A stretch of 64,000 nt of DNA from an uncultured Verrucomicrobiae bacterium (GTDB taxonomy: Bacteria > Verrucomicrobiota > Verrucomicrobiia > Chthoniobacterales > UBA10450). Both the position numbers and the translations under genes were made by a program. The stretch covers positions 492,153 to 556,152 of the forward strand of contig CAVVOH010000003.1 in the NCBI GenBank assembly GCA_963749935.1, written 5' to 3'. The notes under the pieces are model-generated. The model saw nothing but the letters and a program-made list of their open reading frames with translations. It ran no database searches and was not told the DNA's origin. Within the stretch, counting starts at the first letter, position 1. The number at the start of each line of letters is the position of its first letter. Below, piece after piece: positions 1,716 to 61,361 of the stretch.

Positions 1716-2282
1716 ATGAACGACGACTTGTTGGCTTTGTTCCGCCAAACGGGCGCGCTGCTCGACGGGCACTTTGTCCTGCGTTCCGGCCTGCATAGCC
1801 GCCAATTTTTCCAATGCGCGCTGCTGCTGCAGCACACCGAAATCGCCGCCCAGGTTTGCGGACAGCTCGCCGACAAACTGCGCGACTTCGAGTGCGATGC
1901 GGTCATCTCCCCCGCTCTGGGTGGAATCGTTGTCGGGCAGGAAGTCGGGCGCTCGTTGGGCAAACGTCACATCTTTGCCGAAAAGGAGGCGGGCGGCCTG
2001 GTCCTGCGGCGCGGTTTCCAGATCGCGCCTAACGAGCGCTTCGTCGTCGCCGAGGACGTAGTGACGCGCGGCGGTCGGGTCCAGGAAACGATCGAGATCG
2101 TGCGTCAGCACGGCGGCCAGGTGGTCGGGATCGGCGTGATCGTCGATCGCAGCGGCGGCCAGCGCCCTGATCTTGGCTGCCCTTTCGTTAGTCTGATCGA
2201 GCTACAAGTGGAAACCTTTCCTGCTGACCAAATCCCAGCCGACCTCGTCTCGATCCTGGCTGTTAAACCTGGTAGCAGCTAA
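1716..2282 (+). CDS. pyrE: Orotate phosphoribosyltransferase
   Basis: 188-aa ORF. N-terminus GHFVLRSGLHSRQFFQC and PRPP-binding loop RFVVAEDVVTRGGRVQE are typical of PyrE. Confidence 0.9.
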   Translation: MNDDLLALFRQTGALLDGHFVLRSGLHSRQFFQCALLLQHTEIAAQVCGQLADKLRDFECDAVISPALGGIVVGQEVGRSLGKRHIFAEKEAGGLVLRRGFQIAPNERFVVAEDVVTRGGRVQETIEIVRQHGGQVVGIGVIVDRSGGQRPDLGCPFVSLIELQVETFPADQIPADLVSILAVKPGSS

Positions 2283-2938
2283 CGTCCGGTGCGCGCCCAA
2301 GGCGCGGCATCAATGCACTGTATCAACTCGTCTGAGACCCATCCGTATAGCGAGAGCTTGGACTCGCTGAAGCGAGTCCATCCGGAGGGACATGCTTCCG
2401 CATGTCTAGTTTTTGCCCGGCCGGTCTCGCTTTCGATGATAGGCTGCACTGGGGGCCTGTATCACTTGAAAGGTGAGTAGCGACAATGCCATCTGATGAT
2501 CATACTTTGTAAAGCATGACAGAGGAGAGACCGTCCATGAAATTGGAGGCCACGTGCTCACGTGGTCCATGATACAGGGCACCAGTGCAATGACGAAGTT
2601 ACTGGGGGGCGTTGAATCGGGGTTTATCCTCGTCGCTACCAGGCTGCGCGGTAGTGTTCTTTACTCCCAAAAAAAGACCAGACTTAGGGAGGGATACATC
2701 CTTTCTACATTTCTACCGAAGTGATTTCTCATTCAAAGCACATTTCAGCCTCGTCTTTTGGCCGTAGGAGAAAGTGCATTGCATGCCAGTTATCGCTTCA
2801 CGGGGTTCGGCCGCAGGACGGTAATGGCGCCGGAGAATTTGTGATCATCGCAAAAAAGAAAGGACGTTACCGGCCGGATCCAAATTTAGCTTGTGCCCCC
2901 GCTGATAACGCGGAGAGATTATCGCTATCGCCCTGCAA

Positions 2939-3874
2939 ATGGAAGACCAAGCCGCAATTCACACGAAGATCGCCCAAAAATGGGACGGGGTGGCACGACT
3001 GCGAGGAACAAACTGGTGGCAAACGCCGTTAGTACGACAGCACATCAACCGGCTCGTTGCTAGCCAACCATGCGGCACTGGGATTTCCGCTGGAACTATT
3101 TCATTTTTGAAAGAGCTTGCTAAAGGAAGAGTCTTTCAACGGGCGGTCAGCGTCGGTGCGGGGTCTGGAGTAAAAGAGATGCTCCTTCTTCGCAACGGGC
3201 TTGTGCAAGAGATGGATCTCTTCGAACTCTCCCCCAAGAGAATCGAGGAAGGTCAGAAAAAAGCCGCCGAATTAGGCTTCGCCGAACGCATTCACTTTCA
3301 TTCGACCGATGCTTTCGAAAGCCTGCCGAATGCGTCCGTCGATCTTGTCTACTGGAACAACTCCCTACATCACATGTTTGATGTCGATGCTGCCGTGACC
3401 TGGAGTCACGATGTCCTTCAAACCGGCGGACTGTTCTATATGGATGATTTCGTGGGACCCAACCGCCGTCAGTGGTCGGAAAAGGCTTTGACCATCGGAT
3501 CGCGTATTCGCAGCCTGTTGCCGGAACGTTATCTTAAAGCCCCTCAGGCCCTAAACGCACCTCCTAACAAATCAGTCCTACCGCGCACTCTGGTTCGGGA
3601 AGATCCGGAACGAATCGCCACCGCAGATCCTTCGGAAGCGGTCGACTCGGAACGAATCCTCGCAGCAATCAAACGGGAATTTCCCGAGGCGATCATTCGC
3701 CCCACCGGAGGAGTCGTCTACCACATGACGCTGGTCGGGATGCTACAAAATTTCGACTCGACGGACGACCGCGACATTGCGCTACTGGAGTCCCTCCTCC
3801 TGCTCGATGAGCTTTGCATCGAAGTGCCCGGTCTCGAGACGCACTACTGCGTCGCCGCAGCCTGGAAGACCTGA
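2939..3874 (+). CDS. Class I SAM-dependent methyltransferase
   Basis: 311-aa ORF. Motif I VSVGAGSGVKE, acidic loop MDLFELS, then HFHSTDAF...VDLVYWNNSLHHM...GGLFYMDDF. Convergent with the giant glycosyltransferase frame. Confidence 0.8.
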   Translation: MEDQAAIHTKIAQKWDGVARLRGTNWWQTPLVRQHINRLVASQPCGTGISAGTISFLKELAKGRVFQRAVSVGAGSGVKEMLLLRNGLVQEMDLFELSPKRIEEGQKKAAELGFAERIHFHSTDAFESLPNASVDLVYWNNSLHHMFDVDAAVTWSHDVLQTGGLFYMDDFVGPNRRQWSEKALTIGSRIRSLLPERYLKAPQALNAPPNKSVLPRTLVREDPERIATADPSEAVDSERILAAIKREFPEAIIRPTGGVVYHMTLVGMLQNFDSTDDRDIALLESLLLLDELCIEVPGLETHYCVAAAWKT

Positions 3875-6800
3875 TTCGTCGCTGGCGCAGTCCATATCTG
3901 GTCAGGGCGCCGCAGCCGCGATCTCGCGCGGAGTACCTGACAGACTCCGACGAGACATCCCGCGTCGGCCCTTCTTCCAGAACCGACCGGACAGCTCGCC
4001 GCGTCCAATCCGCCGCAGCGATTCGACAGTAAATTGCCAAAGCCTGACCCAACGTCCGGGCGCCAAAATTACGCATGAAAATCTTCAAGCCATGCGCAGT
4101 GAGACGCGTGGCGGTTGCCACATCCTGGGTAAGGGCCTCGACCTGAGATCTCACTTCCCCAAAATCGTTCCAAGACACGTGTCTGCTAAATCGCGCTGGT
4201 TCTGGATCGAGCCGATCGAAAATCTGATTCGAAAGCACGGGAATCTTCATTGCCAGGGCCATGGGCAGCGCGGAATATCCAGACCTCTCAGACTCACCGC
4301 GCCAAAAGAGATACGCGTCCGCAGGCGGGACCGAGGGGGGGTATGGCAGGGTGGAATTATCCAGCACCTCCTGAAGCGAAAGAACCGTGCTTAGTAGGAC
4401 GACCCGCATTTGGCGCCCAGGGAGCCCTTCGATGTTGCGCCGAATTTCGTGCGCTTCAGCTTCCGTTAGTTCGTAGTCATCCAACCAAAGAGAAAGGTGC
4501 GCGTTTTTCGAACGCTCGGCGAGATCCTGCCTAACGATCCTCTCGTCCCAAACCGGATTAAGACGGAAGCCCCCGCTCTCACCGGGATCCCACGGGCGAA
4601 CGATTTGATAACGTGCTGGCGATGCCTCCCATCTCTCGTTCGCAGCCAAAGTTCGGTTTGCATTGTCTACCACAATTGCAGCTTCGATCCGACCCTGCAG
4701 CTCACGAACCAGCCGCACCGTGAAATCATCGCACCCCATGTAGAGCAAGACGTCTGTCGAAGCCTCTTGCCCCTGGGCTCGGTTTTCATCACCTAACGAA
4801 ACCTCCACTCCGGGAAACATGCCTGCAAACGAGTCGAGGCTGGATCCCCCAAATATTGTCATTCTGAGTTTGCAGTAACGGGCCAGCGCACGAACCATCG
4901 GAGCGAAACTTGGAGTGCGAATGGCCTTCGCATGCACAACCACCTTCACGTTAAGATCTCGCTGCGCCGGCAAAGCCGTACTCAGTTTCGCCTCAGTCGC
5001 ATAAAGGCGGTCGATATTCCCCTTAACGATCAGACGAGGACCACTGCGATGCTCATGGAGGACGGTGAGCTGACCCCAATTCGAGTTCCGACGGTAGACG
5101 ACGAGGAATTGATCCACATAGAGAGGGTCTCCGTAAAAAGAATAGCGAACCACCAGATCCCAATCTTGCAACCGAACAAGGCTTTCCGTGAAGCCTCCCA
5201 GCTCTCGATACAACTCAATTCGGTGCGCGAAGCCGTTCAGATCGACAAAGTTTTTTGAACTCAACCGCTGATAGTCGAATGGCACATCGCGATAAGTCGC
5301 TAATCGATACCTCCCTTTCCCGTCTACCTTGGTATCCAAGTATCGGCAATAGACTGAAAACCTGTCCGGGCGCGCCATTAACTGCCCCACCATCGTCAAG
5401 AGATAATCCGGATGCCAGATATTGTCGGTGTCAAGGTAGGCGATGAAGCGGCCGGAAGCCCTGGCCAGACCCTGATTGCGCGCCGCGGCGGCCCCGCCAT
5501 GGACCAACTTATGAAACTTGATCCGCGAATCTCCCACGGCGGTCACGACTGACTCTGTGTCGTCTTCGCTCCCATCATCGCAAACATGCAACTCCCAGTT
5601 ACGCCAACTCTGAGTTAGCACGCTGCTCATTGCTTCCTGGATGAGTTCCGCGCGATTGTAAGTCGGCATGATAATCGAGACAAGTGGTTCGTCCCTCTCC
5701 CCGGCGGGGGTGCCGTCACAGATGTGAGATTCGCTCGCTCGCAGGGCGGACCAAAAGGTCGCGTCCAGAGTCGCGGCAAGCTCCTCTCGAATGATCCGGT
5801 GGAAAGGCGACTGCCGCTGCGCGTGCCACAAAGTCCGGTCGCGGGCGTCGAACTGGACAATCCACTCCTGCGCGGCAAGGATCGGCCGGAGCCACGCGCG
5901 CCAGGATGAGATCGAGCGAACATGAAACGGAACCCATGCGCCACTTTCATCCTTCAGCTCGAATGCGATCTGGTTTCGGAAGAAAGGCATCCTGGCGGTG
6001 ATCTCAAATCCGCTTTGCAAGGCTTCATTCCTGTCTGGAAAAGCTTTCGCTACATCAAGTCGCTCGAGACCGTAAGTTCCCTCGTAGATGGCACCGCCAT
6101 GCCGAAGACGAACGCCCAAGGCTTTTCCAATGGCCGGGAAGCACCAGCCGCGGATATGAACCTCTGAAACATTGTTCAGCCAGACGGCAGGATGATTGAA
6201 CGAATATCTGACCGTTTTACTCGACCATTTCCCGGTAATATCCAGTTTGATCCGCTCCGGTCGACGCACGGCGGCCGTGCCGCCTTGCGCGCTCCCTCGT
6301 CGTACTTTTGTGGCCTGAGCCGATCCACGGGCGTTCTTGTTCACCAGCCGGGAAATGGTATGGATGATTTGCCGCGCGCGCCGATCGAAGGTGTGTTGGC
6401 CTGAAACCTTGCTGCGCAGCGCTTCCCCTTTGCGCAGCCGCTCGTCATCGTGGAGCAGATAATATTCCACTATCTCCCGCAGTTCAGCCTGCGTCCGATA
6501 AGTCTGCACGCAACCGTCAAACACCTCGTCCATGCCTGCGGCTTGGTCCGAAACGATGAAGGCCCCGCAGGCGCCGGCATCGAAGAGTCGATTGGATAGG
6601 AAGCCGCTCTTGGCCATTGTTTCCCAATGGTCGTTGAAGAGAATCTTGCAGCCACTGTAGTAGTGACGCAAAACGTTATTGTCTATATGCAGCCCCTTAA
6701 GATGATCGGGCTGAAGAAAATCTTCCCAAAGCGACCCATAGACCGCCAATGGTAGGCCGGCTGCAATCGCATCTCTCACAATCGGCCGAAAAACCTTCCT

Positions 6801-7856
6801 TGAGTTCCCCACAAACAAAAGGGGATCGACTTGAAGATCCGTTCGGCGTTCGAAATAAAAAACCTCGGGATCTGTACACTGTAACAACGCACTCACGTTC
6901 GCTCCAAGGCGCACGGCGAGTTCCTGGGCAAAGGAGTGTGAGGCGACAAAAACGTGATCAAAGTCTTCATACTCCCCCGGCGCTACCCGGTCGGGATGAC
7001 TGATATTCCACATTAGATTGAGGTGTCGGGGATTCGGTTTGTATCTATGCCGTCCTCTCAAGGTCAGGGTAACATCGTCTCCTGAATCCGATTCGCGCCC
7101 CCATTCGGGATTCATATCGATCCGGCAGGAATGGCCCAAGCGATTGAACGCCCGTTGCAGGGCGAGCGCAAAATGGTGGTCCCCCCAGGCGGGCGCTTCC
7201 TGCGTGTTCGGTACGCTCGTTTTGATCGAGATAGTAAGGCGGTCCAAATCCGGAGGCTGCGAGGAAGCGTTGTCGCGTTGTGACTGGAGAATCAACGGCG
7301 CATCGGTATCACCACCTTCGCTGGAAATCGAAAAGCTAGCGGGGAATTGAACCGGGAGCGGACTTCTTAGCGAGGTGCTACCTGACGACAAGGCGACCAA
7401 CTCTGCGGCGCTTCGCTTTTGCCGGTCGAGGTCCTTGATCCTTGCCATCAGCTCCTTAGCCCGGTGAGCAAAGGTATGTGCGGCGAGAACCCGGGATTGC
7501 ATTCGCTCCGCCCGAACGCACCGTTCCGCAGGACGGGCTAAGTAATAGCGCACTTTCTCCTGAAAATCAGATTCGCTCTGGTAGGTCACCAAATCCTCAC
7601 CAAAGACCTCCGCGCCGCCATCGATTTGATCGGAAAGAACGAAAGCTCCAGCCGCCGCCGCATCGAAGAGTCGATTGGAAAGGAAGCCACACTCGCGCAT
7701 GGATGGCCAGTGATCGTTCACCAGAATCCTGCATCGACTATAGGTACTGACGCAGCACCGAGTTATCGATGTATTCGCCGCGGATGTAATCGACTGGGAT
7801 AAAGCTTCCCCAATCTTTTCCGTACACGCCAATCGGCATTTCAGCCGCCACGGCAT
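3693..7856 (-). CDS. Giant glycan-synthesis protein, ORF piece 3 of 3: end of the second and the complete third CgeB-like glycosyltransferase module, a GT2 (GT-A) domain, and a ~550-aa C-terminal region of unknown function
   Basis: 1387-aa ORF. Homologous coding begins near 7743, where YSRCRILVNDHWPSMRECGFLSNRLFDAAAAGAFVLSDQ continues ORF 7738-8997 after a 1-nt frame break. Internal paralogous module: YSGCKILFNDHWETMAKSGFLSNRLFDAGACGAFIVSDQ. GT2 signature: VSIIMPTYNRAELIQEAMSSVLTQSW...LHVCDDGSEDDT...YLDTDN. The last ~60 codons (3693-3874) are Arg/Ser-rich and overlap the methyltransferase 3' end, so the true stop is uncertain. Confidence 0.8.
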   Translation of the reverse strand: MPWRLKCRLACTEKIGEALSQSITSAANTSITRCCVSTYSRCRILVNDHWPSMRECGFLSNRLFDAAAAGAFVLSDQIDGGAEVFGEDLVTYQSESDFQEKVRYYLARPAERCVRAERMQSRVLAAHTFAHRAKELMARIKDLDRQKRSAAELVALSSGSTSLRSPLPVQFPASFSISSEGGDTDAPLILQSQRDNASSQPPDLDRLTISIKTSVPNTQEAPAWGDHHFALALQRAFNRLGHSCRIDMNPEWGRESDSGDDVTLTLRGRHRYKPNPRHLNLMWNISHPDRVAPGEYEDFDHVFVASHSFAQELAVRLGANVSALLQCTDPEVFYFERRTDLQVDPLLFVGNSRKVFRPIVRDAIAAGLPLAVYGSLWEDFLQPDHLKGLHIDNNVLRHYYSGCKILFNDHWETMAKSGFLSNRLFDAGACGAFIVSDQAAGMDEVFDGCVQTYRTQAELREIVEYYLLHDDERLRKGEALRSKVSGQHTFDRRARQIIHTISRLVNKNARGSAQATKVRRGSAQGGTAAVRRPERIKLDITGKWSSKTVRYSFNHPAVWLNNVSEVHIRGWCFPAIGKALGVRLRHGGAIYEGTYGLERLDVAKAFPDRNEALQSGFEITARMPFFRNQIAFELKDESGAWVPFHVRSISSWRAWLRPILAAQEWIVQFDARDRTLWHAQRQSPFHRIIREELAATLDATFWSALRASESHICDGTPAGERDEPLVSIIMPTYNRAELIQEAMSSVLTQSWRNWELHVCDDGSEDDTESVVTAVGDSRIKFHKLVHGGAAAARNQGLARASGRFIAYLDTDNIWHPDYLLTMVGQLMARPDRFSVYCRYLDTKVDGKGRYRLATYRDVPFDYQRLSSKNFVDLNGFAHRIELYRELGGFTESLVRLQDWDLVVRYSFYGDPLYVDQFLVVYRRNSNWGQLTVLHEHRSGPRLIVKGNIDRLYATEAKLSTALPAQRDLNVKVVVHAKAIRTPSFAPMVRALARYCKLRMTIFGGSSLDSFAGMFPGVEVSLGDENRAQGQEASTDVLLYMGCDDFTVRLVRELQGRIEAAIVVDNANRTLAANERWEASPARYQIVRPWDPGESGGFRLNPVWDERIVRQDLAERSKNAHLSLWLDDYELTEAEAHEIRRNIEGLPGRQMRVVLLSTVLSLQEVLDNSTLPYPPSVPPADAYLFWRGESERSGYSALPMALAMKIPVLSNQIFDRLDPEPARFSRHVSWNDFGEVRSQVEALTQDVATATRLTAHGLKIFMRNFGARTLGQALAIYCRIAAADWTRRAVRSVLEEGPTRDVSSESVRYSARDRGCGALTRYGLRQRRIRSSRLRRRSSASRDRALRCKAHRAGGGTPVAQCRGRPSSRNFVASRPASCGRRLLRWGE

Positions 7857-8997
7857 AGCGCACAGCCTCCCGATATTGCTTACGGGAGTTACCTACAAAA
7901 AGAATCTCCTCAGACAGCACGTCCGGATTCGGATCGGAAAAAAAGATGCGCGGATCAGTGCATTGCAAGAGGACACTTACAGAAGTTCGGAGACGTTGCG
8001 CGAGGGTCGTAGCATGCGATTCCGATGCGACAAAGACGTGGTCAAACTCGTTATACTCCTCGTCTTCAATCCGGTCCGGATGACTGATATTCCAGATGAG
8101 GTTTACCTGTCCTGGCTGCGGACGATATCGACTCAGTCCGCGCAGACTAATCGCAACGTCATCGCCAAACGACTGCGGCCGATGCCACTCATCAAGACAG
8201 TCGATACGAAACGAGTGGCCAAGGGCGGCCAGGTGTCGGCCGAGGGAACAAGCGAAGTGATAGTCACCCCAATGCTTCATTTCGCTGCGACTGGGCGCGC
8301 CTATCTTGAGGCCGATCCGATACCCCTCCCGCGCGTGAGCGATCAGAATGCGTTTCAAAGTGCGAGCTCGCGCCTGATAAGTGTGATGGGTTAGAACGCG
8401 CTGGCGCAATTGCTCCAGCAGAACCCTTCGGGCCGTCTCATCGCTCAGGTAACGCTCCAAAAGGGATTGGAGCTCCTCCGGAGAACGGTAAGCAGGCAAT
8501 TCGCCTTCGAAAATTTCCGCGGCACCAATAGAATTATTGGTAATGACCAAAGCGCCGGCGACGAGGGCATCAAAGACCCGCGAGTTCACTGAGCCCCAGT
8601 CTTTCGTCACGTGATTCGCGTCGTCGATCACCACTCTGGTAGAGGCATAAACCGTTGGCATCTCCGCGTACAGGTAGAGGGCCTCGCGCGTAACTCCGCA
8701 GCCGAGGATGCGTCTCCCAACCTTTACCGAAGACAGCGAAGTTGTAACTTTCGAGCTGTTGGGGCTGGAGTGCGTGGCCAATTTCGCGATCGAATTGCCA
8801 GTAGTTTCCCGTGAAACAATAGTCCGAATTGAGCCGCGCGTCGGCAAGGCCTGCGCTGAATCGCGCGGGATTGGTTGCCAACGGAAAGATCTGGGCAGGC
8901 TTATGATGCACCTCCCGCAGCCACTGCGCCGACCTGGCTGATGAGCAGAGAAAGAGATCATACTCATCAAAGTCCGGCCGGGCTGCCCAGCGCTCAA
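7738..8997 (-). CDS. Giant glycan-synthesis protein, ORF piece 2 of 3: C-terminal half of the first and most of the second CgeB-like glycosyltransferase module
   Basis: 419-aa ORF. The homologous part starts near 8671 (YAEMPTVYASTRVVIDDANHVTKDWGSVNSRVFDALVAGALVITNN) and continues ...FGKGWETHPRLRSYARGPLP of ORF 8570-11911. The first ~110 codons of the listed ORF are an out-of-frame overlap. It ends VLRQYL*, where paralogous modules continue YYSxC(K/R)IL. Confidence 0.75.
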   Translation of the reverse strand: MSAGQPGRTLMSMISFSAHQPGRRSGCGRCIISLPRSFRWQPIPRDSAQALPTRGSIRTIVSRETTGNSIAKLATHSSPNSSKVTTSLSSVKVGRRILGCGVTREALYLYAEMPTVYASTRVVIDDANHVTKDWGSVNSRVFDALVAGALVITNNSIGAAEIFEGELPAYRSPEELQSLLERYLSDETARRVLLEQLRQRVLTHHTYQARARTLKRILIAHAREGYRIGLKIGAPSRSEMKHWGDYHFACSLGRHLAALGHSFRIDCLDEWHRPQSFGDDVAISLRGLSRYRPQPGQVNLIWNISHPDRIEDEEYNEFDHVFVASESHATTLAQRLRTSVSVLLQCTDPRIFFSDPNPDVLSEEILFVGNSRKQYREAVRYAVAAEMPIGVYGKDWGSFIPVDYIRGEYIDNSVLRQYL

Positions 8998-11764
8998 ACC
9001 AATTACGCAACCAGGCTACTTTTAGCAGATAAGGTTTCGCATCGCGAATCTGGGAAGGCTCATAGGAGTCGAGAAGAACAACCAGGACGTCCACATCCTT
9101 GAGGTCGTACCAGTCTTCATTACGGGCCAGATATCGAATCGTCCAACCAAACTCCCGCGCACAGGCTTCCCCCAGTTCCGAAGCGCTGAAGAAATCGCCT
9201 GCCGCTGCGTCCGGCCCAACCTCGGTAACGGCGAAGGCTACCGTAAATGGAGACTCCGAGAAAAAGAGCCCGTTCGACATCTTATCGATCAGAAAGTTTC
9301 GTCGCAGATACCACCCGTGGCGGTGGAGGAAGTAACTGATGTTATCCCGTCGCCGATCCGCGATGACCTGTTGGCTCTGGTGCTGGCCGCTGGCGCTTTT
9401 GTGGTGAATACCAACGAGATGATTCGCCGAGGCCGAATGCAGACCCATTCGACGTCGAAGAGAAAGCGCCAGATCCACATCCTCGTAGCCGTAAACGTAA
9501 TCTTCACAAAAGCCGCCCACCGCCAGGAAATCCCGCCGCCGGCAGCTTGCCAGAGCGAGATTAACCGCGGGAAACTTCTCCAACAACGGGGGAGTATCAG
9601 TGAGGAGAGAAGACGCGCCTAGATTAAATGGCCGGTGGAAGAAAGAAGGCGGATCCCGTCGGAATTTCACTCCGGCGTGTCGGATCCCGCCGGGAAAATT
9701 GGGTGAATCATCAGGATAGACGAGGCGAAGTCCCACCAGCCCAATGCGTTCATACTCCAGGCAGCGAAGGAGATCGGGCATAACGTCGCTCCGGAAGGTG
9801 ATGTTGCTGTTTACAAAGACGAGATAGTCGGCGTCGGTCTGGTCAGCAGCACGATTGTTGGACTGCGCGAAAGAATGGGTATCCGGGTAGTCATTTACAC
9901 TTATAGGAAGACGATCTTTGAATTCGGCAATGACGTCGCGGCTGTCATCGGTGCAAGCGTGCAGGACGACGCGAAACTCTGTGCTAGGGTGGGTATTGAA
10001 CCTGAGGAACGAGTCAAAGAGATTGCGGAGATTATCTTCGCCCGCATGATGCACGACGATGCAGCAGGCCTTCGCCGACGCGGGAAAAACGCCTGCCGGA
10101 ATCGCCACCGCGTGTTTCTCCGCGGCGGCCTTGCGCATAGTCATGGCTCGGATGATCCGCGCCGGGTCTGGTTCAGCGGACTCCTCCTCCGAGCGCGACA
10201 ACTGAGCTGAACTCGACCTGGGGGCCGGATTGGCACTGGGCGCCTTGAGAGGAGTGGTCCTTTTTGCCTTTGCCCGCTTGAGGTCTTTGCGCGTTTTGGA
10301 AAAGAGGTTTCGAATTTCTTCGACATGATGCCGTGGGCGCCGGCTAACGAGACCCAGCCGGCGAGCGGTGTAGACGATAAAGTGAAAGGCACGCGATTCG
10401 CGCAGTTTGCGAAAATGATCTTCCACGGTGTCGAGCGCCTCCTTCAGAAGACGCCTTTCGGCAGTCATTTCCTCCCTCTGGCGACGCTCGTTCGTTAACT
10501 CGGCATCACGGCGCGCTACAGTCTGCTGGAAAGCGACGATCCGAGCGCTGCTACTCCGGAGGCGGCTCTGGAGGTCATCGACCTTGTCACTCAGCGCGCG
10601 GACGCGAATCTCCCGCGCGGCCAGTTCTTTATCCATGCGTTGGATCTGGCGATTAGTGGCATCGGCCTTCGCCGCCTGATGGAGAGCCTTTATCTCCCGT
10701 CGCACCGTCTCCTGCACTAATCGGGCGATCGCGGCATTTTTCTTCACTTCTTCCCGGGCTGTCCGGAGCGACCCGGATATCTCTGTCAGCTTCTCACGCG
10801 CTGCCTCCACCTCTTCGCGCAGCCGCTTCGTGTCCAAACCGACCAGCTCAGCCCTGCTTTTCCAGACGGCGACACCCGCCTCCCGTTCTTCTGCCCTGGC
10901 CTTCCAGGCCGCAACTTCCGCTTCCCGCTTCTTGACTAGGGCATACTGACGTTCCAGCTCCAGTCCTTGGTCGTGCTGCGCGAGTAACTCTTCCGCTAAA
11001 GCGGAGCATCGAATCGCTTTTGTCATGCTCAGCGCGTTCTTCTTTTCAAACCGCAGCCGAAGCTTCCGTTGCGCCGGACTTAGCTTCGCCGTTATCCCCT
11101 TTTCCTTCGCCCGGTATAACGCTGGATCGATGAACGAAAGGATCTCCTCCGCGGAGGGCAAACGAAGACCCCGCACCCCAGCCGCTTCCAGTTCTTCCAG
11201 CAGTGCCTGCATCGCCGAAACCGGTTCGGATAAAAGCTGAGGATGATTTACCTGGATGCGCTTCCGCTTCAGCGTGGCGTTAAGCGCCGAAGTACTGTAG
11301 CGCTCCCAGAGGGCGAGCCCGAAAGCGATCGAAAATTGGTTCCGCATCTGCAGAGAGCGCGCTACTTCCAGGGGCGACCGATAAACGAAGACGCAGACCG
11401 GGAATTCCAAAAGCTCCAACCAAAGCGGCGCCAGCACGCAGAGACGGGGTTCCTTGATGAACCAGGGCCGATGCGAATCCAGCTGATGAATGATTTGAGC
11501 GGCTTCGCTTTTGAATTGCTCGAGCGTCGCGACCGGGACTCGATCGAGGGAAAACCGGCTCAGTTCATCCCAATCTGCGCCGGCTGCACGCAGCACCATG
11601 TTATTCAAATTGCGCACATCGCGCCGCTCCCAAAAGCCCTTCGGATTCTCCGCGTTAGCCCCGTTAGAAACACCTTCGGGCGCGAAATAGGCGCCCATCA
11701 TATTTAAAAGGCGCGCCGCCAGCGAGGTGCCGGAGCGGTGCATTCCGAGGACAAGAATCTGCAT
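8570..11764 (-). CDS. Giant glycan-synthesis protein, ORF piece 1 of 3: N-terminal sulfotransferase domain, ~190-aa coiled coil, GT2 domain, first CgeB-like module
   Basis: Start placed at MQILVLGMHRSGTSLAARLLN (sulfotransferase PAPS-binding loop at the N-terminus) rather than at the Arg-rich upstream ATG at 11911. Heptad-rich stretch EAEVAAWKARAEEREAG...DKVDDLQSRLRSS...LKEALDTVEDHFRKLRE at about 10380-10950. GT2-like CCIVVHHAGEDNL...DADYLVFVNSN. The frame breaks near 8671. Confidence 0.8.
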   Translation of the reverse strand: MQILVLGMHRSGTSLAARLLNMMGAYFAPEGVSNGANAENPKGFWERRDVRNLNNMVLRAAGADWDELSRFSLDRVPVATLEQFKSEAAQIIHQLDSHRPWFIKEPRLCVLAPLWLELLEFPVCVFVYRSPLEVARSLQMRNQFSIAFGLALWERYSTSALNATLKRKRIQVNHPQLLSEPVSAMQALLEELEAAGVRGLRLPSAEEILSFIDPALYRAKEKGITAKLSPAQRKLRLRFEKKNALSMTKAIRCSALAEELLAQHDQGLELERQYALVKKREAEVAAWKARAEEREAGVAVWKSRAELVGLDTKRLREEVEAAREKLTEISGSLRTAREEVKKNAAIARLVQETVRREIKALHQAAKADATNRQIQRMDKELAAREIRVRALSDKVDDLQSRLRSSSARIVAFQQTVARRDAELTNERRQREEMTAERRLLKEALDTVEDHFRKLRESRAFHFIVYTARRLGLVSRRPRHHVEEIRNLFSKTRKDLKRAKAKRTTPLKAPSANPAPRSSSAQLSRSEEESAEPDPARIIRAMTMRKAAAEKHAVAIPAGVFPASAKACCIVVHHAGEDNLRNLFDSFLRFNTHPSTEFRVVLHACTDDSRDVIAEFKDRLPISVNDYPDTHSFAQSNNRAADQTDADYLVFVNSNITFRSDVMPDLLRCLEYERIGLVGLRLVYPDDSPNFPGGIRHAGVKFRRDPPSFFHRPFNLGASSLLTDTPPLLEKFPAVNLALASCRRRDFLAVGGFCEDYVYGYEDVDLALSLRRRMGLHSASANHLVGIHHKSASGQHQSQQVIADRRRDNISYFLHRHGWYLRRNFLIDKMSNGLFFSESPFTVAFAVTEVGPDAAAGDFFSASELGEACAREFGWTIRYLARNEDWYDLKDVDVLVVLLDSYEPSQIRDAKPYLLKVAWLRNWFERWAARPDFDEYDLFLCSSARSAQWLREVHHKPAQIFPLATNPARFSAGLADARLNSDYCFTGNYWQFDREIGHALQPQQLESYNFAVFGKGWETHPRLRSYARGPLPVRGDANGLCLYQSGDRRRESRDERLGLSELAGL

Positions 11765-11898
11765 GAGCCAGGATAGTGCTTTTACAGCTACGCTCCCGAG
11801 GCTGGAAAGCAACTCTGCGCTCGACCTACCGCAAGCCTGCTGGTTCGAGAAGCCGCGCGCGCGGCGCCTCCGGCGACAGCCCCTCCGCCCCGAGATTC

Positions 11899-11940
11899 GG
11901 ATCGATTCCACGCCTCGTCGCGAGTATTCAGCAGAATTGA
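11899..11940 (+). pseudogene. Relic of the last ~13 codons plus stop of a fourth fibre-gene paralog
   Basis: Own translation ...GSIPRLVASIQQN* resembles the C-termini of the three fibre genes (PIPLLTSIEQN*, APRTVANNP*, VPLTVASTR*). It is followed at the same 7-nt offset by the ccgcggatttcgcgg repeat that follows fibre gene 1. Confidence 0.35.
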
Positions 11941-12212
11941 GTTAAACCGCGGATTTCGCGGATCACACGGATAGCTGAACCAGGGCACCGGCGAACTCTG
12001 ATCCGTTAAATCCTTGTCATCCGTGGTCTAAATCCAAGTGTGTCCGCGCCGCGCGGGACTCGTTTTTGGTCCTTGACAGCTTCCGGGGCTTTCCCAGAGT
12101 CGATCTGCAGAATGAGCTAAAGCGGGCACTGAAGTTTACCTCCCCGGTGGCTTTCTGTTTCCGTTTCAGTCTTCACTTCCATCAACCAGAACCGGGAGAA
12201 AAGGAGATCCGT
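11941..12212 (+). repeat. Conserved inter-paralog module, copy A: ccgcggatttcgcgg hairpin repeat, cttgaca promoter-like box and a long conserved 5' leader of fibre gene 1
   Basis: Aligns by eye with 13640-13924. Shared blocks: ccgcggatttcgcggat(c/g)acacggata, catccgtggtc(t/c)aaatccaagtg, cttgacagc, gaagtttacctccc, ccatcaaccagaaccggga.aaa.ggagatcc.tATG. Its 3' half also aligns with 15841-15986. Confidence 0.75.
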
Positions 12213-38498: not shown

Positions 38499-38534
38499 GC
38501 CGGCCGGTCGCGGACTGCCGCGCAAAACTGCCGT

Positions 38535-49690: not shown

Positions 49691-49762
49691 GCCTGCGCGA
49701 TCGTTAGGCTGAGCAGAGGGTTGCCGCAGCCGATGAGTGCGGCTAAAATTGGCCGCTCAACT

Positions 49763-55855: not shown

Positions 55856-58298
55856 ATGACCATCCCTCCTGATTCCAACCTGCCGGCCTCTTCCGCCCCT
55901 GACTTCGCTCGGTGAAGGGAAACACGGATTCGACTTCCGCCATTTCTGGCATTCCATCCTCGAACGCCTCTGGGTCTTGGTCCTCTGCGTGGTGGCGGGC
56001 CTTTTCTTGGCTCTCGGTTATTTGGCGAAGACGCCGAAGGTCTACCAAAGCCACGCCGTGCTGGAAGTCGATTTCCAAGAACCCACCATGATGGATGGCG
56101 ATCAAAGTTCGTCCCGCATGCGCTCGATGTTCCTGGCCAGCCAGGAAGCGCTCCGCACCATCGAGCAGAATCTGACCAATCGGAATCTGATGGCCCGCGT
56201 CATCCGGGCTGAAGGCCTGGCCGACGACGGCGGCCGCGGCCTGCTTGGCTCCAGCGTAACGGACGAACAAAACCCCAGCCCCACGCCGGCCCCGGCCAAT
56301 TCGAAAACATCGTCCGCGCCTAACGAAGATAGCTTTCTGCGCGACCGTGCCTTTACCCCGCTCGAAGACGGGCTCGGCGGTGCACTCTCCACTATGGTCA
56401 AGCCGGTCATCCGGCGCGGCACCCGTTTGATCGATCTTTACGTGAGCAATCGCGATCCCGCCCTGGCCCAGCGTCTAGCCGAGAGCGTCGGCCGCGAATA
56501 TATCCGCATGTCGATCGAGCGCCGCTCGAACTTCAGCCAGGAAAGTCTCCGCTACCTGATCGAGGAAGAGGAACGACTCAAAGCCAACTTGCGCAAGAGC
56601 GAGGCGGCGGTGGCCGAATACAAATCCAACACACCCGACGCGCTCCAGCTCGGCGGCGGCGCGGCCTCCACCGGTGGGCAATCCAGCGCGGCGCGGCGGT
56701 GGACGCGGCGGTTTGGTCGAGGACAAACTGCAGGAGCTGTCGAGCAAGGTCACTTCCGCCAAAGCCGATCGGGTCCGGCTGGAGAGTGAGTTGAAACAGA
56801 TCGAGCAGGTCGGAGATAAAGTGGAAGCGCTGCTCGCCATCCCCAGCATCGCCACCGCGCCCGTCGTGGTCGATCGGCGCAAAGATGTCGCCCAACTTGA
56901 ATCCTCCGTCGCCAGCCTGGCCCAGCGCTACAAATCCAGGCATCCCAAAATGATGGCCGCCCGCGCCGCTCTCGAAGAAGCGCAAGAAGCGCTCAAGCGC
57001 GCCGTACTCGCTCAGCCCGCTGTCCTGCGGAACGTCCTCGCGCAAGCCCGCGCCGCCGAGAGCAGTCTCGGCTCCGCTGCCACCGAACAGGAGAAGGCGG
57101 CTCTCGCCCTCAACAAAGCCGCCATCGGTTACCAGGAGCTGGCCCGCCAGGCTGAAACCGATCGCGCCCTTTACGAAAGCGTTCTGCGCCAGATCAAAGA
57201 AACCAATTTAACCAAGGATGTGAAGACCAACGCCGTCAGCATCGCCGAGCATGCCACCATGCCTTATGCGCCGGCCAGTCCGAATTCGGGCAAAGCCATC
57301 CTTCTCGGTCTGCTCGGCGGTCTGGCCGCCGGCCTGGGCTTTATCTATGCCACCGATGTGATCGATCGTTCGCTCAAGACCGTCGACCAGGCCGAAGCAC
57401 TCCTCGGCCTGCCCGTCCTCGCCGCCGTCCCGGAAAGAACCGGCAAATCGAAGCAGGGCGAAGACGCGCGACGACCCCTCCGGGGTCGCCCCCTACCGGC
57501 TCGTGGCCAAAGTCCCGGAAGGCCCGGTCGCGGAAGCTTTCCGCAACCTGCGCGCTTCGCTTTCCCTGCTCGGACCCGAAATCGAGAGAAAGGTTTTCCT
57601 CTTCACCAGCGCCTTGCCGTCCGAAGGCAAAAGCTTCACCAGCGCCAACTACGCCCTGGCCCTCGCGCAGCAGGGGCATCGCGTGCTGCTGATCGACGGC
57701 GACTTGCGCCGGCCGAGCCTGCACAAGATCTTCTCCGATTCGAGCCCGGGCGCGACCCAACGCCAAATCGCTCGTCGGCGTGGTGGATTATCTGGTCGGT
57801 GAAGCAGGGCTCGAAGAATCCGTCATGCGCATCGCGGCCAGCGATGTCGACGTCACTCGCACCCGCACCGACAGCGGCAAGAAGTTTGTCACTGCCACCG
57901 GCGGCCAGCTCTCCATCCTGCCGGGCGGTCGCCGCGCGCCGAACCCGGCCGAACTCTTGAGCGGCCCCTCCTACGGGGAAATGATCGCCGAAGCAGCCCG
58001 CCTCTTCGACCGCGTCGTCATCGATAGCGCCCCGCTCCTCGCCGTGAGCGACACCCTCCTCATGATCCCCTACGTCCAGACCGTCACCCTGGTCGTGCGC
58101 GCGGCCAAGACCCCGCGCAACGCCGTTCTGCGCGCCATCTCCCTTCTCGCCACCGCCTCCACTCGCCCGGCCGGAATGATCCTCAACCGTCTCCCCCACC
58201 GTCGCGGCGCCGGCTATTACTACTACTACGCCTCCCACGGCTATGGCGCCGGGGAAGGGAGCTATGAAGCGGAGGCAGAGAGTGAGGTGAAAAGCTGA
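55856..58298 (+). pseudogene. wzc: Polysaccharide co-polymerase / BY-kinase (Wzc/GumC-like chain-length determinant with C-terminal tyrosine autokinase); at least 4 frame breaks (~55910, ~56690, ~57480, ~57770)
   Basis: Wzz-like N-terminus FWHSILERLWVLVLCVVAGLFLALGYLAKTPKVYQSHAVLEV. Coiled periplasmic region. Second TM KAILLGLLGGLAAGLGFIY. Kinase: Walker A FTSALPSEGKSF, A' LLIDGDLRRPSL, B VVIDSAPLL. Tyr cluster RGAGYYYYYASHGYG. Confidence 0.8.
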
Positions 58299-58543: not shown

Positions 58544-60193
58544 TTGAAACGATCGACTACATTCTTTCAGTTCTTTTCGATGTCCGCTTTTCGCTTTCCC
58601 TTTTCCTCCTGGATGGGCGACTCTGCTGGCTGGCTGCTGGTAGCGTCAATCTTTTATATTCCCTGGAATTATGGCGGCACCAGCGCGTCCGGCATTGACG
58701 TCCTCAACGCTCTCCTGGGCGGCGCCTTCTTTTGCTGGCTCGTCTCCAGCCTCGCGCGAGGGAAAAACCCCGACCACGGCTGGTTGCCCTGGCTTCTCGG
58801 GGGGGTCATCCTTCTCCTACTTTCGTTAGGCTGGGGCATGGCCTTAAATGCCCGCGCCATCTCCGACGCCGATTACCAGATCATGGTTCCGCGCGCCGCA
58901 CCTTTTCCCGGCGCCCCCGGTTCGCTCGATCTCGCCCTCAGCATCGCCATGATGTGGCGGGTCAGCGCGCTGCTCGGCGCGCTCTGGATCGTGACCCGGC
59001 TGGTCCGGGATGAACGCTGGCTCCTTCGCATCTGGTGGTCGCTGGCTTTGGCCGGCGCATCCATCGGCCTCCTAGGGCTGCTCCAAAAAGCGACCGGGGC
59101 GCAAATGATCTTCTGGGACCAGCTCGAGCCGGGTGAGCCGCCGATCACGACTTTTTTTGCGACGTTCTTTTACCACGCCAACGCCGGCGGTTATCTCAAC
59201 CTGGCTCTCCCCGCCGTGCTCGGGCTCGCCTTCCGCTACGTCACCCGGCCCGCTCACCCGGCGGGCCGGGCGCTTTGGATTCCTCTTTCCTTCATCATGA
59301 TCGTGGCCTTGTTTTCAAACACGTCGCGAGCCGGACAGGTGGTCGCGGGGGCGATAGTTCTCGCGCTCCTGCTCTTTTGGATGCCGCTCCTTTTTCGTCG
59401 GCGGCTAATCAGGCTCAGAATCGCGCTCGTCGCAGTTCCGGTCGGTCTCCTCACATTCTGGGCGATCGCCCGGACGAGCCATCTCGATAGCTCTTTTGGT
59501 CGGTGGGAACGCTTCACCACCAGTTGGTCGGGCGACGCCCGATGGGAGGTCGATGCGGTCGCCCTCGACGCGCTCCCCGAGGCGGGCCCTTTCGGGTTTG
59601 GCCCAGGGACCTTCAACGCAGTGTTCCCCGTCCTGCTCGAAGAGCGAGGGAAACGGATCGAAGACCAGGAATGGATCTTCCTTCACAACGACTGGCTGCA
59701 AACGGTCCTGGAATGGGGCTGGATCGGAGCGGCGCTCTGGGCCGTGTTATTCTTCGGAGGGATCATTGCCGCCTACGCTTATCTTCGGCAAAGCAGCGCG
59801 GAAAGCTGGCTCCCGCGCCAGCGTACGATCCTGCTCGTGGCGCTCGTCGCCCTGACGGGCGTCGCCTTCCATGCCATGATCGACTTCCCCCTCCAGATCG
59901 CCTCTATACAACTCTCCGCCGCAATCTATCTCGGAGTGTGCTGGGGAAGCCCAGCGTGGAGACAAGTGGGGAGGCCGGAGGTGAAGGAGAAAGGAGAAAG
60001 GAGAAAGGAGAAAGGAGAAAGGAGAAAGGAGAAAGTAGCCGTAACGGATGCCGAGCAACGGCCGGGCTTTCAAAGGCTAAAGGCTAACCTGGCTCCTGGC
60101 CCGTTCTCCGGTGATGTTTCCAATCCCGGGGACGTCGTCGGTGGCGCACCTGGAAGAGAATATGGCGGCCGCCAAGCTACAGCTTACACCTGA
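58544..60193 (+). CDS. O-antigen ligase / Wzy-like polytopic membrane protein; the C-terminal ~70 codons (heptamer repeat onward) are probably not native
   Basis: 549-aa ORF with ~10-12 hydrophobic segments (WLLVASIFYIPWNYGG, LLLSLGWGMALN, LGALWIVT, SLALAGASIGLLGLL, ...HNDWLQTVLEWGWIGAALW, typical of the Wzy_C region). Follows wzc directly. Confidence 0.55.
   Translation: MKRSTTFFQFFSMSAFRFPFSSWMGDSAGWLLVASIFYIPWNYGGTSASGIDVLNALLGGAFFCWLVSSLARGKNPDHGWLPWLLGGVILLLLSLGWGMALNARAISDADYQIMVPRAAPFPGAPGSLDLALSIAMMWRVSALLGALWIVTRLVRDERWLLRIWWSLALAGASIGLLGLLQKATGAQMIFWDQLEPGEPPITTFFATFFYHANAGGYLNLALPAVLGLAFRYVTRPAHPAGRALWIPLSFIMIVALFSNTSRAGQVVAGAIVLALLLFWMPLLFRRRLIRLRIALVAVPVGLLTFWAIARTSHLDSSFGRWERFTTSWSGDARWEVDAVALDALPEAGPFGFGPGTFNAVFPVLLEERGKRIEDQEWIFLHNDWLQTVLEWGWIGAALWAVLFFGGIIAAYAYLRQSSAESWLPRQRTILLVALVALTGVAFHAMIDFPLQIASIQLSAAIYLGVCWGSPAWRQVGRPEVKEKGERRKEKGERRKEKVAVTDAEQRPGFQRLKANLAPGPFSGDVSNPGDVVGGAPGREYGGRQATAYT
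59984..60035. repeat. Heptanucleotide microsatellite (AAGGAGA) x 7.4
   Basis: aaggaga repeated 7 times, then aag; read directly from the sequence. Translated in the ligase-like ORF as EKGERRKEKGERRKEK. Confidence 0.9.
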
Positions 60194-60221
60194 CGAGTTG
60201 CACTCGTTAGGGGCGAGCTAA
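60087..60221 (+). pseudogene. C-terminal ~44-codon relic of an aldo/keto reductase
   Basis: Own translation: TWLLARSPVMFPIPGTSSVAHLEENMAAAKLQLTPDELHSLGAS*. It matches the conserved AKR C-terminus (..W.L.....v.PIPGt....hLeeN..a....L...e...L). No upstream AKR sequence is present. Confidence 0.6.
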
Positions 60222-60261
60222 GCACAACGCCTCCCGCTAATGGCGGATGGCCGGTTTATGC

Positions 60262-61131
60262 TCAAGCTGGCTCGGTATCGTGCAGCCGAGCGTAATCGAC
60301 GGTCAGCCGGCCGTCGCCGTGATCAGTGTAGATCTCGACGAAGCGTTCATCGAACCGGATATCTCGAAAAGTGTAATCCTGCTGAGTTTGAACTGAAGCA
60401 GGAATAACCGGATCAATGCCGACGACAGAAGCGACGATGAGGACGCGGTCGCGCTCGAGCGACTCGAGAGTCTGGCCGTAGAGCGGGCTGCTCTCATCGA
60501 TGACGTGGCGTAGAGTGAGCGCGGCCGGAAAGGTGGGCAGGCGATCGAACTGAAGTTTCAAGTTATAGAAGTAGCGAAACTCGCCGCCTTCCTGCAAAGG
60601 CTCGTCACGGTTGAAGAGGATGCGGAATTCCGCCTCGATCATGCTGCGATGACGCAAGTTGCCGATGCGCAACATCAGTGTGGGCCGGCCATTCAAGGGC
60701 GCGATGACGACCGAGCGGCTAAAGACGATGCGCGCCGTCGGGCGGGAGAAGCGAACGAAGATGAGGCCAGTCATGACAGCGAGCAAAAAGAGGCCGCTCA
60801 TTATCTCAATCGTGGTGAGAACGTTGCTGTAGAAATTGCTCGGATACATGTTCCCGTAACCCACGGTGGCAAGGGTTTGGACACTAAAAAAGAAGGCGTC
60901 GACGGCCGAGCCGGGCCGCATGTGCGCGACACAGTTGCCGCCAAAGAGGTAGAGCGAACCAAACAGGATATTGAGGGCGAGGTAGACGGTGGCGACGACC
61001 AGAGCGAACTGAGGCCAGGTAAGCGCCAGCATCCATTGGTAGACATCGCGCCATTCCCACTTCTCGGCATTGAGCTTGACGAATTCGATCTGCCCGGCAC
61101 GGATGGTTACAGGATGGCTTCTCGATTTCAT
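60262..61131 (-). CDS. Inward-rectifier-type (KirBac-like) potassium channel
   Basis: 289-aa ORF. Two TM helices flank the selectivity filter TLATVGYGNMYP. C-terminal cytoplasmic Ig-like domain (FSRSVVIAPLNGRPTLMLRIGNLR...). Confidence 0.85.
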   Translation of the reverse strand: MKSRSHPVTIRAGQIEFVKLNAEKWEWRDVYQWMLALTWPQFALVVATVYLALNILFGSLYLFGGNCVAHMRPGSAVDAFFFSVQTLATVGYGNMYPSNFYSNVLTTIEIMSGLFLLAVMTGLIFVRFSRPTARIVFSRSVVIAPLNGRPTLMLRIGNLRHRSMIEAEFRILFNRDEPLQEGGEFRYFYNLKLQFDRLPTFPAALTLRHVIDESSPLYGQTLESLERDRVLIVASVVGIDPVIPASVQTQQDYTFRDIRFDERFVEIYTDHGDGRLTVDYARLHDTEPA

Positions 61132-61361
61132 AAAACCAGTTTAACGCGGTTTTCGCGTTTGCGAGACCAGAGCGATCCGCGCTGGTATGTTGGCTGCGTT
61201 TGGACGGTGCCCGGCCTTTTTGTCGAGGTTTTGCGGCACGAACGCCGCTCGGTAACTCGGGCGTGGGACCGATTGCCGGTAATTCTGCTTAAAGGAGCAT
61301 AAAATGTTTGCGCCCAGATTTCGATTGACGCCTAACGAAGAACCTGTTGTGAATCGCACCC

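Follow-up and report, generated by a model that had tools for sequence, protein, structure and literature searches.

A stretch of 64,000 nucleotides from an uncultured Verrucomicrobiae bacterium (assembly GCA_963749935.1, contig CAVVOH010000003.1, positions 492,153 to 556,152; here called the window) poses a simple question: why does one short word, the octamer CCTAACGA, recur on both strands throughout it, within genes and between them? It is proposed, from sequence comparisons, that the full nine-nucleotide form, GCCTAACGA, may be a lineage-specific self-recognition word of the kind represented by DNA uptake sequences (DUS) and uptake signal sequences (USS), jointly DUES, and that it may have spread by biased uptake and recombination. 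This reading is given a probability of about 0.48.

An exact search returned 36 copies of CCTAACGA in the window, 22 on the forward strand and 14 on the reverse strand, which is the count reached by a first-pass annotation; the coordinates given there also held, apart from one slip (a copy entered at 56329 lies at 56319). The word is non-palindromic, its reverse complement being TCGTTAGG. The base at position −1 is G in 28 copies, as had been counted before, C in 6, A in 2 and never T, so that the consensus is CCTAACGA preceded by G or, less often, C. Beyond position −1 the aligned window copies show zero conservation, which identifies the unit as a 9-mer rather than the core of a longer repeat. 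Correspondingly, GCCTAACGA is the most frequent 9-mer of the window, and CCTAACGA ranks second among its 8-mers.

At the 60% GC of the window, Markov models of orders 0–3 predict 0.9–1.7 copies of CCTAACGA, and 100 dinucleotide-preserving shuffles gave a mean of 1.05 and a maximum of 5. The excess is thus approximately 26–38-fold by the Markov models; an earlier hand estimate of approximately 20-fold had recognised the enrichment and set its size too low. The density is 0.56 copies per kb over the whole window, or 0.71 per kb once a motif-free island is left out. Copies appear randomly spaced (median 650 nt), and a fixed spacing or dimer arrangement was rejected on that account. The one-mismatch relatives reported previously were all found again: CCTAACAA at 3563, 26346, 41011 and 45245 and, on the complement, 18948, and CCTAACGC at 20873, 26278 and 54126.

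The window was annotated with Pfam and each copy was placed relative to the genes. Twenty-nine of the 36 copies lie within genes and seven at gene edges or in intergenic DNA; as this share matches the coding fraction of 81%, there is no intergenic enrichment. The genic copies are divided between sense (15) and antisense (14) orientations, and are read as Pro-Asn-Asp/Glu (10), Ser-Leu-Gly (10), Leu-Thr (5) and Val-Arg (4), the four readings that the first-pass annotation had listed. In eight relatives, CCTAACGA is spread over the open frames in the numbers 41, 36, 30 and 27, with 15 further copies in non-coding DNA. The leucine codons TTA and CTA, each 3% of leucine codons, are both used by the motif, and 7 of the 39 TTA codons of the gene set fall inside it, in keeping with the suspicion that rare TTA codons were being recruited. 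Three copies (28587, 44332 and 38492) do supply stop codons, to the rhodanese, metH and amidase open reading frames (ORFs), respectively. Rfam and tRNA scans of the window gave no match overlapping any copy, and a role at the RNA level was rejected because sense and antisense copies are equal in number and no such overlap exists.

A codon-aware null model, the check proposed in advance by the first-pass annotation, left its claim of selection at the DNA level standing. Synonymous shuffling within each gene, which keeps proteins and codon usage, gave 2.1 ± 1.2 copies (maximum 7, n = 1000) against the 29 observed in coding DNA, and permutation of whole codons gave 0.5. It is therefore hardly credible that the word merely follows from protein motifs or codon usage, or stems from a dispersed repeat element or an assembly artefact. 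Three copies do lie in word-favouring peptides, namely 48110 and 48422 in a repeated 'APND' and 41567 in the metH peptide 'NDIIFDPN'; since five genomes that lack a general enrichment have the last of these too, the protein partly explains it. The use of four frames on both strands, the unconserved flanks, the appearance of copies without change in length and the presence of the word across assembly technologies likewise tell against a by-product, and for the bulk of the copies this explanation is refuted. Together with the rare codons and with the alignments described below, the null model supports an origin of the excess at the DNA level, by selection or drive, rather than at the protein level.

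Relatives were found through the window metH in a species-level genome collection. They are metagenome-assembled genomes (MAGs) of Chthoniobacterales (Verrucomicrobiota), one of them a 'Candidatus Udaeobacter' MAG, with a top protein identity of 86%. Three proteins of the window were also looked up by exact sequence, and none had an entry. Nine of the relative loci are rich in the word, at 0.44–2.0 copies per kb (45 copies in 23 kb in locus L001), and with the window they hold 189 copies in 233 kb against 3.6 expected, a pooled enrichment of 53-fold. Over the same 233 kb, most single-base variants of the word occur at about the expected frequency, changes at position 7 are enriched 4–6-fold and a few others 2.5–4-fold. 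Enrichment is 59-fold in the nine rich loci and 1.2-fold in 44 loci from other phyla; the value of 8.9-fold for 27 other Chthoniobacterales-like loci is to be read cautiously, as these loci are syntenic, with a few conserved sites in common.

In the metH tree, one rich clade comprises the window, L001, L003, L004, L007, L008 and L036. A further rich pair, L021 and L024, lies in the sister group, the rest of which (L014, L023 and L032) is poor. Density differs five-fold among close relatives, and the word is nearly gone from sister lineages. Of the rich loci, L001, L003, L004, L024 and L036 lie on contigs JACDGS010000003.1, CAWFYE010000009.1, JBKJNW010000103.1, JBBQFI010000001.1 and JBBPZS010000125.1, and L008, L003 and L021 belong to the Microflora Danica MAGs MFD02416.bin.2.223, MFD05442.bin.1.417 and MFD00822.bin.2.108; L017 and L032, from low-density relatives, lie on the 4.0-Mb contig CAWBIP010000002.1 and chromosome OY970345.1. 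As the rich loci were assembled in unrelated studies, with SPAdes, with MEGAHIT or from long reads, an assembly artefact is ruled out. When metagenomes were scanned from a divergent motif pair as seed, 120 loci were returned, 30 of them motif-rich, with 250 copies in 207 kb at a GC content of 0.54–0.69; these 30 contigs carry ordinary housekeeping genes from unrelated genomic places, so the word is genome-wide. It is clear that the word is restricted to one Chthoniobacterales clade of uncultured soil Verrucomicrobia, at variable density.

A second 'dialect' was considered for the sister lineages. AAGATCGACATC tops the over-represented 8-mers in sister loci L012, L017, L019, L022 and L025, at approximately 6–9-fold over an order-2 Markov model; it occurs almost exclusively as xID or VDL, in common codons and in a single frame per orientation. 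Its abundance is most likely a codon and dipeptide effect and not a DNA-level signal, and it was rejected as a dialect; the candidate GATCGACA is likewise a codon effect.

The manner in which copies arise and persist was read from a metH alignment of 24 genomes. Some copies are common to most rich genomes and others are private. At shared sites, the word-less genomes have unrelated sequences 3–6 mismatches away, which often encode different residues. At the site at 40377, other genomes carry TCGCTCGG, TCGATGGG and the like. The word therefore overwrites variable protein positions and leaves the length unchanged. At a single metH column, the word stands in opposite orientations in two groups of genomes.

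Conservation was compared in all pairs of the nine rich genomes, which are phylogenetically non-independent, although the contrast is large: the partner genome has the identical 8-mer for 59% of motif copies, as against 19% for control 8-mers, at a flank identity of 0.797 for the motif and 0.810 for controls. There is a shortage of states with one or two mismatches (17% for the motif, 56% for controls), and states at least three mismatches away are as frequent as for controls. Neisserial DUS behave in the same all-or-none manner, with high conservation amid slightly more divergent surroundings (Treangen et al., PMC2397512). Elsewhere in the window, the copy at 45748 and its neighbour 97 nt away form a pair conserved in L003, L004 and L036.

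An origin from mobile repeats was rejected. Repetitive extragenic palindromic (REP) elements, REPINs and miniature inverted-repeat transposable elements (MITEs) resemble the word in copy number, but they are insertions of 20–300 nt with hairpins and conserved flanks, whereas the 9-mer replaces bases at unchanged length and aligns without gaps to non-motif sequence, with no conserved flank, hairpin or indel. The one REPIN/RAYT-like element of the window, in metH, is unrelated to the word.

Three classes of highly over-represented oligomers are distinguished in the literature: Chi sites, uptake sequences and the highly iterated palindrome HIP1 (Elhai, PMC4390886). Chi (GCTGGTGG in E. coli) and the FtsK-orienting polar or architecture-imparting sequences (KOPS/AIMS; GGGNAGGG) are likewise asymmetric 8-mers in excess, which serve chromosome maintenance, and both had been suggested for this word by the first-pass annotation. 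They are strongly co-oriented with replication, however, and the word is not. Its strand ratio is approximately 1:1 in each of ten independent loci, and, with a log Bayes factor of 15, the data favour a 50:50 model over one with a 75:25 skew whose direction is left free. The cumulative GC skew of the window falls overall, which suggests that it lies on a single replichore. Neighbouring copies are oriented at random (84 direct, 47 convergent and 48 divergent pairs), and among the 189 copies there is only a handful of close inverted pairs, with no association with terminators or inverted repeats. Neither suggestion was sustained by these results.

A Chi-like self mark, which would switch a RecBCD/AddAB-type nuclease from degradation to recombination and which phages would copy for protection, might still be argued from the asymmetric, octamer-sized, clade-specific and conserved word and from its host-density presence in a phage head module. 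Known Chi sites are G-rich and have an excess about an order of magnitude below the 30–90-fold excess of this word. It is on the size of the excess and on the strand symmetry, in a window that is apparently a single replichore, that Chi is excluded, and we consider this explanation very improbable.

The longest gap between copies, a zero-copy stretch of 13.5 kb, separates the sdhC copy from the last copy in a giant glycosyltransferase gene. Random placement of 36 points gives a maximum gap of at least 13.5 kb with P = 0.007 (Monte-Carlo), and the GC content of the stretch is 0.57, compared with 0.60 elsewhere in the window. From its composition and gene content, it is likely to be an accessory or recently acquired surface-polysaccharide island, since variable islands of that kind typically hold such genes. 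Recently acquired genes in Neisseria similarly lack DUS (PMC2397512).

The island contains three consecutive genes (12638–17301, forward strand), each with a C-terminal Peptidase_S74 domain, and the third has 51/102-nt tandem repeats at 16344–16876 that encode Asn/Thr/Gly-rich units. The three proteins resemble phage tail-fibre proteins and lie in a cellular surface locus beside giant glycosyltransferase genes.

Absence from the likely accessory island also speaks for another explanation, in which the copies would be high-density sites for a lineage-specific chromosome-associated protein (in nucleoid structure, cohesion, or the loading of replication or repair factors), each copy being selected for the benefit of binding, irrespective of orientation. 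The sharp specificity of the word, its conservation above background, its genome-wide spread and its independence of transcription direction and gene ends all suit such a role. The known precedents suit it less well: parS, matS, Noc and SlmA sites, of which a genome has tens, are confined to regions or are palindromes, and sites at approximately one per kb, such as KOPS and Chi, are strand-skewed, which this word is not. A five-fold variation in density and near loss in sister lineages are hard to square with an essential architecture, and selection on approximately 2000–6000 sites of tiny effect per genome would be weak compared with drive. This explanation is judged distinctly unlikely.

The word was also followed into viral DNA. 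Close motif pairs were sought in 2.9 million viral contigs, and nearly all of the approximately 310 loci returned are chance pairs. The phage evidence consists of one contig, L081 (IMGVR_UViG_3300036819_000104), of 12.1 kb and GC content 0.61, which encodes a terminase, a portal protein, a head protease and a major head protein; it carries ten copies (0.83 per kb) with unrelated flanks, nine of them with G at position −1. No relative of its terminase other than L081 itself was found in the viral data. Temperate phages of Pasteurellaceae accumulate USS to the host level, and large lytic phages do not (PMC6776037). A motif-rich phage, which at first sight argues for a process acting inside the cell, therefore fits uptake too.

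On either side of the major-head-protein gene of L081 (7820–8890), three copies have a longer form in common, GCCTAACGAACAAAG/A, that is absent from the window copies; the phage may have an intergenic element of its own, derived from the host word. A second viral contig, L255 (IMGVR_UViG_3300023035_000005, 157 kb, GC content 0.36), was rejected as a motif-rich virus, as the octamer is there by coincidence part of a longer, unrelated repeat, CCTAACGAAGTATGGC, present in ten copies and often with GACTTCGTAG just before it.

An uptake sequence is favoured because the sequence-level properties examined largely match that class, and the resemblance to uptake sequences first remarked on by the first-pass annotation is upheld by density, strand symmetry, clade specificity, conservation at permissive sites, absence from the island and presence in a phage. 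The DUS of Neisseriaceae (GCCGTCTGAA, with dialects) and the USS of Pasteurellaceae (AAGTGCGGT and ACAAGCGGT) are, like this word, short, asymmetric, clade-restricted and present at approximately one per kb on both strands without replichore skew. They too lie within genes in tolerated frames and are conserved and yet placed at permissive protein positions; they are missing from recently acquired DNA and are taken on by temperate phages, with which the likely island and the single phage module would agree (PMC2397512, PMC6776037, bioRxiv 10.1101/2025.10.24.684340).

In the proposed mechanism, competent cells of the clade would bear a surface DNA receptor, possibly a subunit of a pilus or pseudopilus or some other component of the uptake machinery that can bind DNA. 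The receptor would be one that binds double-stranded DNA containing CCTAACGA preceded by G or C better than other DNA. Bound fragments would enter as single strands, be loaded by DprA and RecA, and recombine with the chromosome. As word-bearing fragments would be imported more often, gains of the word would spread by recombination and losses would be replaced, a molecular drive that would work with or without a benefit from conspecific repair. The word would eventually fill all positions tolerated by the proteins, on both strands and in any open frame, and would stay sharply conserved; it would be missing from recently acquired DNA and would accumulate in temperate phages that co-evolve with the host. 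Weak support comes from one motif-rich contig, L474, on which a full-length DprA (DNA_processg_A, 1e-73; DprA_WH; N-terminal HhH) is encoded beside topA.

Several observations weigh against an uptake sequence. DprA is also widespread in bacteria that are not transformable, and no prepilin, pilus ATPase or secretin signature was found in a search that did not extend to ComEC and ComEA and that covered approximately 0.45 Mb of motif-rich sequence, which is little and redundant. For Verrucomicrobiota, to which these uncultured organisms belong, we know of no demonstration of natural transformation. In contrast to the DUS of Neisseria, the copies are neither enriched between genes (7 of 36, in a window with 18.5% non-coding DNA) nor placed in inverted-repeat terminators, and the AT-rich flanks of the Haemophilus influenzae USS are absent. 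No convincing alternative dialect was found in the sister lineages examined. Moreover, all of the sequence-level properties listed above would also be produced by any process inside the cell that favours the word.

There are further differences from known DUES: the word belongs to Verrucomicrobiota rather than Proteobacteria, has an unrelated sequence and is known from sequence alone, whereas in Neisseria the receptor, ComP, is known. A 2025 survey records DUES only in Neisseriaceae and Pasteurellaceae, with about half of them in terminators (bioRxiv 10.1101/2025.10.24.684340); for inverted repeats the share is more than 90%. Enrichment in terminators or inverted pairs, which characterises the family without strictly defining it, and AT-rich flanks are missing here, and no dialects were found. 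A literature search by sequence (CCTAACGA or TCGTTAGG) returned primers and unrelated matches only, and a search by topic found no account of this word, of uptake sequences or of competence in Verrucomicrobiota, so the earlier remark that no motif of this sequence had been described can stand.

The main rival explanation compares the word with HIP1 (GCGATCGC) and the alternate highly iterated palindromes (HIPs) of cyanobacteria. HIP1 is an octamer that is very frequent in coding and non-coding DNA, with lineage-specific gains and losses, conservation above background and an unproven function (PMC4390886). By analogy, a DNA methyltransferase might modify the word or a core such as CCTAAC, and a bias in methylation-dependent mismatch or very-short-patch-type repair might turn near-matches into matches and restore mutated copies, so that a ratchet would act in all resident DNA with no need of uptake. 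We regard such a ratchet as unlikely, without thinking it far-fetched. HIP1 itself, of comparable density, in coding DNA and conserved, has been explained in this manner (PMC4390886), and a phage in which the word is as dense as in the host agrees with a mechanism working on all DNA resident in the cell.

Further evidence comes from variants of the word. In the assemblies that resemble long-read products (the window, L003, L008 and L021), there are 10 instances of GCCTGACGA, where 2.0 would be expected, and 5 of GCCTAACAA, where 0.36 would be; short-read assemblies have 2 of each, for expected numbers of 1.5 and 0.27. The position-4 A>G variant CCTGACGA is found in the window at 41436, 7381, 43997, 46154, 60189 and 51486, and also in L003 and L008. 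Several of these variants occupy sites at which the word is intact in every other genome, and one is common to the window and L008, which are not sisters. Nanopore data typically contain purine-transition miscalls where a motif is methylated. The excess of A>G at position 4 could thus be either real decay or a methylation-induced basecalling error; its confinement to long-read assemblies gives one weak hint that the word is methylated, which is a further point against simple uptake and speaks for the modification site that was among the options of the first-pass annotation. If the variants are miscalls, the word is methylated, and either a HIP1-like repair ratchet or methylation-dependent uptake would be favoured.

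A HIP1-like ratchet has its own difficulties. The word is asymmetric, with 8–9 contiguous specified bases, and known HIPs are palindromes that contain the 4–6-bp sites of identified type II methyltransferases; to our knowledge, no methyltransferase has a specificity like this word. In HIP1, deviations by one mismatch cluster at the outer positions, which is not the case here. No DNA methyltransferase was seen in the window, where the gene at 2939–3874 matches generic class I S-adenosylmethionine methyltransferase families. Finally, the excess of variants may be true decay in the lineages of the window and L008, which have the lowest densities.

A more radical variant of the same idea deserves mention, although we hold it to be doubtful. 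The word may add a fourth class to the hyper-abundant oligomers: an asymmetric 9-mer that carries a methyl group on its fourth base and is written into all resident DNA, phages included, by an intracellular process, so as to label the chromosome as 'self'. Either a repair ratchet coupled to methylation or a nuclease to which word-bearing DNA is immune could be the process at work. We know of no counterpart of such a label for asymmetric words.

The individual copies, four decayed copies and the motif-free island are collected in the table.

Table. Coordinates of the word, of its decayed copies and of the motif-free stretch in the window.
Feature	Position	Strand	Context
Copy	2028..2035	+	sense, phosphoribosyltransferase gene, Pro-Asn-Glu
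Copy	4530..4537	+	antisense, giant glycosyltransferase gene, Val-Arg
Copy	4792..4799	+	antisense, giant glycosyltransferase gene, Ser-Leu(TTA)-Gly; last before motif-free island
Zero-copy stretch, 13.5 kb	4800..18306		giant glycosyltransferases, sulfotransferase-glycosyltransferase, three Peptidase_S74 (endosialidase-chaperone) proteins
Copy	18307..18314	-	antisense, sdhC, Ser-Leu(TTA)-Gly
Copy	18708..18715	+	sense, sdhA, Pro-Asn-Asp
Copy	19365..19372	+	sense, sdhA, Pro-Asn-Glu
Copy	20566..20573	+	sense, sdhB, Leu(CTA)-Thr
Copy	24791..24798	+	sense, 2-oxoacid dehydrogenase E1 alpha, Leu(CTA)-Thr
Copy	24915..24922	+	sense, E1 alpha, Pro-Asn-Asp
Copy	25939..25946	-	antisense, E1 beta (C-terminal piece), Ser-Leu-Gly
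Copy	27284..27291	+	sense, E2 acyltransferase, Leu(CTA)-Thr
Copy	28587..28594	+	TAA stop of rhodanese gene; abuts nifU start
Copy	34496..34503	-	sense, transketolase, Pro-Asn-Glu
Decayed copy (position 5 A>C)	35252..35259	-	exact word kept in L003, L004, L008, L036
Copy	36400..36407	+	intergenic, immediately downstream of polysaccharide deacetylase gene
Copy	36840..36847	+	antisense, polysaccharide deacetylase, Ser-Leu-Gly
Copy	38492..38499	-	complement is TAG stop of N-acetylmuramoyl-L-alanine amidase gene
Decayed copy (position 4 A>C)	38649..38656	+	exact word kept in L001, L003, L004, L036
Copy	39142..39149	+	antisense, MFS transporter, Ser-Leu-Gly
Copy	40377..40384	-	antisense, metH Hcy domain, Ser-Leu-Gly; common to L001, L007, L008
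Copy	40587..40594	-	antisense, metH, Val-Arg; variable protein position, other genomes 4-6 mismatches off
Decayed copy CCTGACGA (position 4 A>G)	41436..41443	-	exact word in seven relatives; same variant in L008
Copy	41567..41574	+	sense, metH, Pro-Asn-Asp in conserved NDIIFDPN peptide
Decayed copy (position 6 C>A)	43655..43662	-	exact word kept in L001, L003, L004, L008, L036
Copy	44268..44275	-	antisense, metH C-terminus, Ser-Leu-Gly; opposite orientation in same alignment column in L021, L024
Copy	44332..44339	+	TAA stop of metH
Copy	44799..44806	-	sense, ClC channel gene, Leu-Thr
Copy	45748..45755	+	antisense, ClC gene, Val-Arg
Copy	45845..45852	+	antisense, ClC gene, Ser-Leu-Gly
Copy	48110..48117	+	sense, 'LAPNDVWA' repeat of 477-aa secreted repeat protein (partly protein-level repeat)
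Copy	48422..48429	+	sense, second repeat 'LAPNDAYA' of the 477-aa protein
Copy	49307..49314	-	antisense, 227-aa hypothetical gene, Ser-Leu-Gly
Copy	49701..49708	-	intergenic, 227-aa gene / tRNA-Glu
Copy	50836..50843	+	antisense, HMBD-domain protein gene, Val-Arg
Copy	51313..51320	-	sense, DUF2891 (C-terminal piece), Pro-Asn-Asp
Copy	51925..51932	-	sense, DUF2891 (N-terminal piece), Leu-Thr
Copy	56319..56326	+	sense, Wzz-like gene, Pro-Asn-Glu
Copy	58823..58830	-	antisense, O-antigen-ligase-like (Wzy_C) gene, Ser-Leu-Gly
Copy	60204..60211	-	intergenic, convergent Wzy_C / Kir-channel genes
Copy	61331..61338	+	intergenic, upstream of 158-aa lipoprotein-like gene

Several conserved genes of the window are split into two or three overlapping ORFs, namely metH (39849–44336), E1 beta (25010–26328), DUF2891 (51147–52333) and dnaB (32700–34680). 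In metH, the breaks include an extra A in a homopolymer at approximately 43757 and a 1-nt deletion near 40981. Such splits point to the indel errors typical of long reads more than to genuine pseudogenes, and the window is accordingly taken to be probably a long-read assembly.

The metH ORF at 40460–43777 also contains an element of approximately 576 bp (42830–43405, forward strand) that encodes a Y1 (IS200-like/RAYT-like) transposase domain (PF01797, E = 1.3e-6) with the HUH motif 'DHVHLL' and is bounded by 22-nt terminal inverted repeats at 42830–42851 and 43384–43405. The element is in frame and stop-free, between the B12-binding and activation domains. It occupies the same site in L001, L002 and L005, and the other metH linker, after the Hcy domain, in L017, L021 and L032. 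Most relatives have neither insertion, and L017 and L021 retain a short hairpin remnant at the site used in the window. The element looks like a mobile insertion that preserves the reading frame of its host gene. A link between it and the 9-mer was rejected, as the element is an insertion with terminal inverted repeats and the 9-mer arises by substitution. At its 3′ end, the O-antigen-ligase-like (Wzy_C) ORF carries another repeat, a perfect tandem (AAGGAGA) of 7.4 units (59984–60035).

If GCCTAACGA is an uptake sequence, sequence-selective natural transformation would be implied in a different phylum, in soil Chthoniobacterales related to 'Candidatus Udaeobacter', and would provide a third independent case in which molecular drive can be weighed against selection for conspecific repair. 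If it is not, the word would be an unexplained asymmetric counterpart of HIP1. Either way, it offers a clade-specific barcode for the binning of contigs and a marker of foreign islands, and may allow temperate phages to be assigned to these hosts, as has been done by USS profiling in Pasteurellaceae (PMC6776037).

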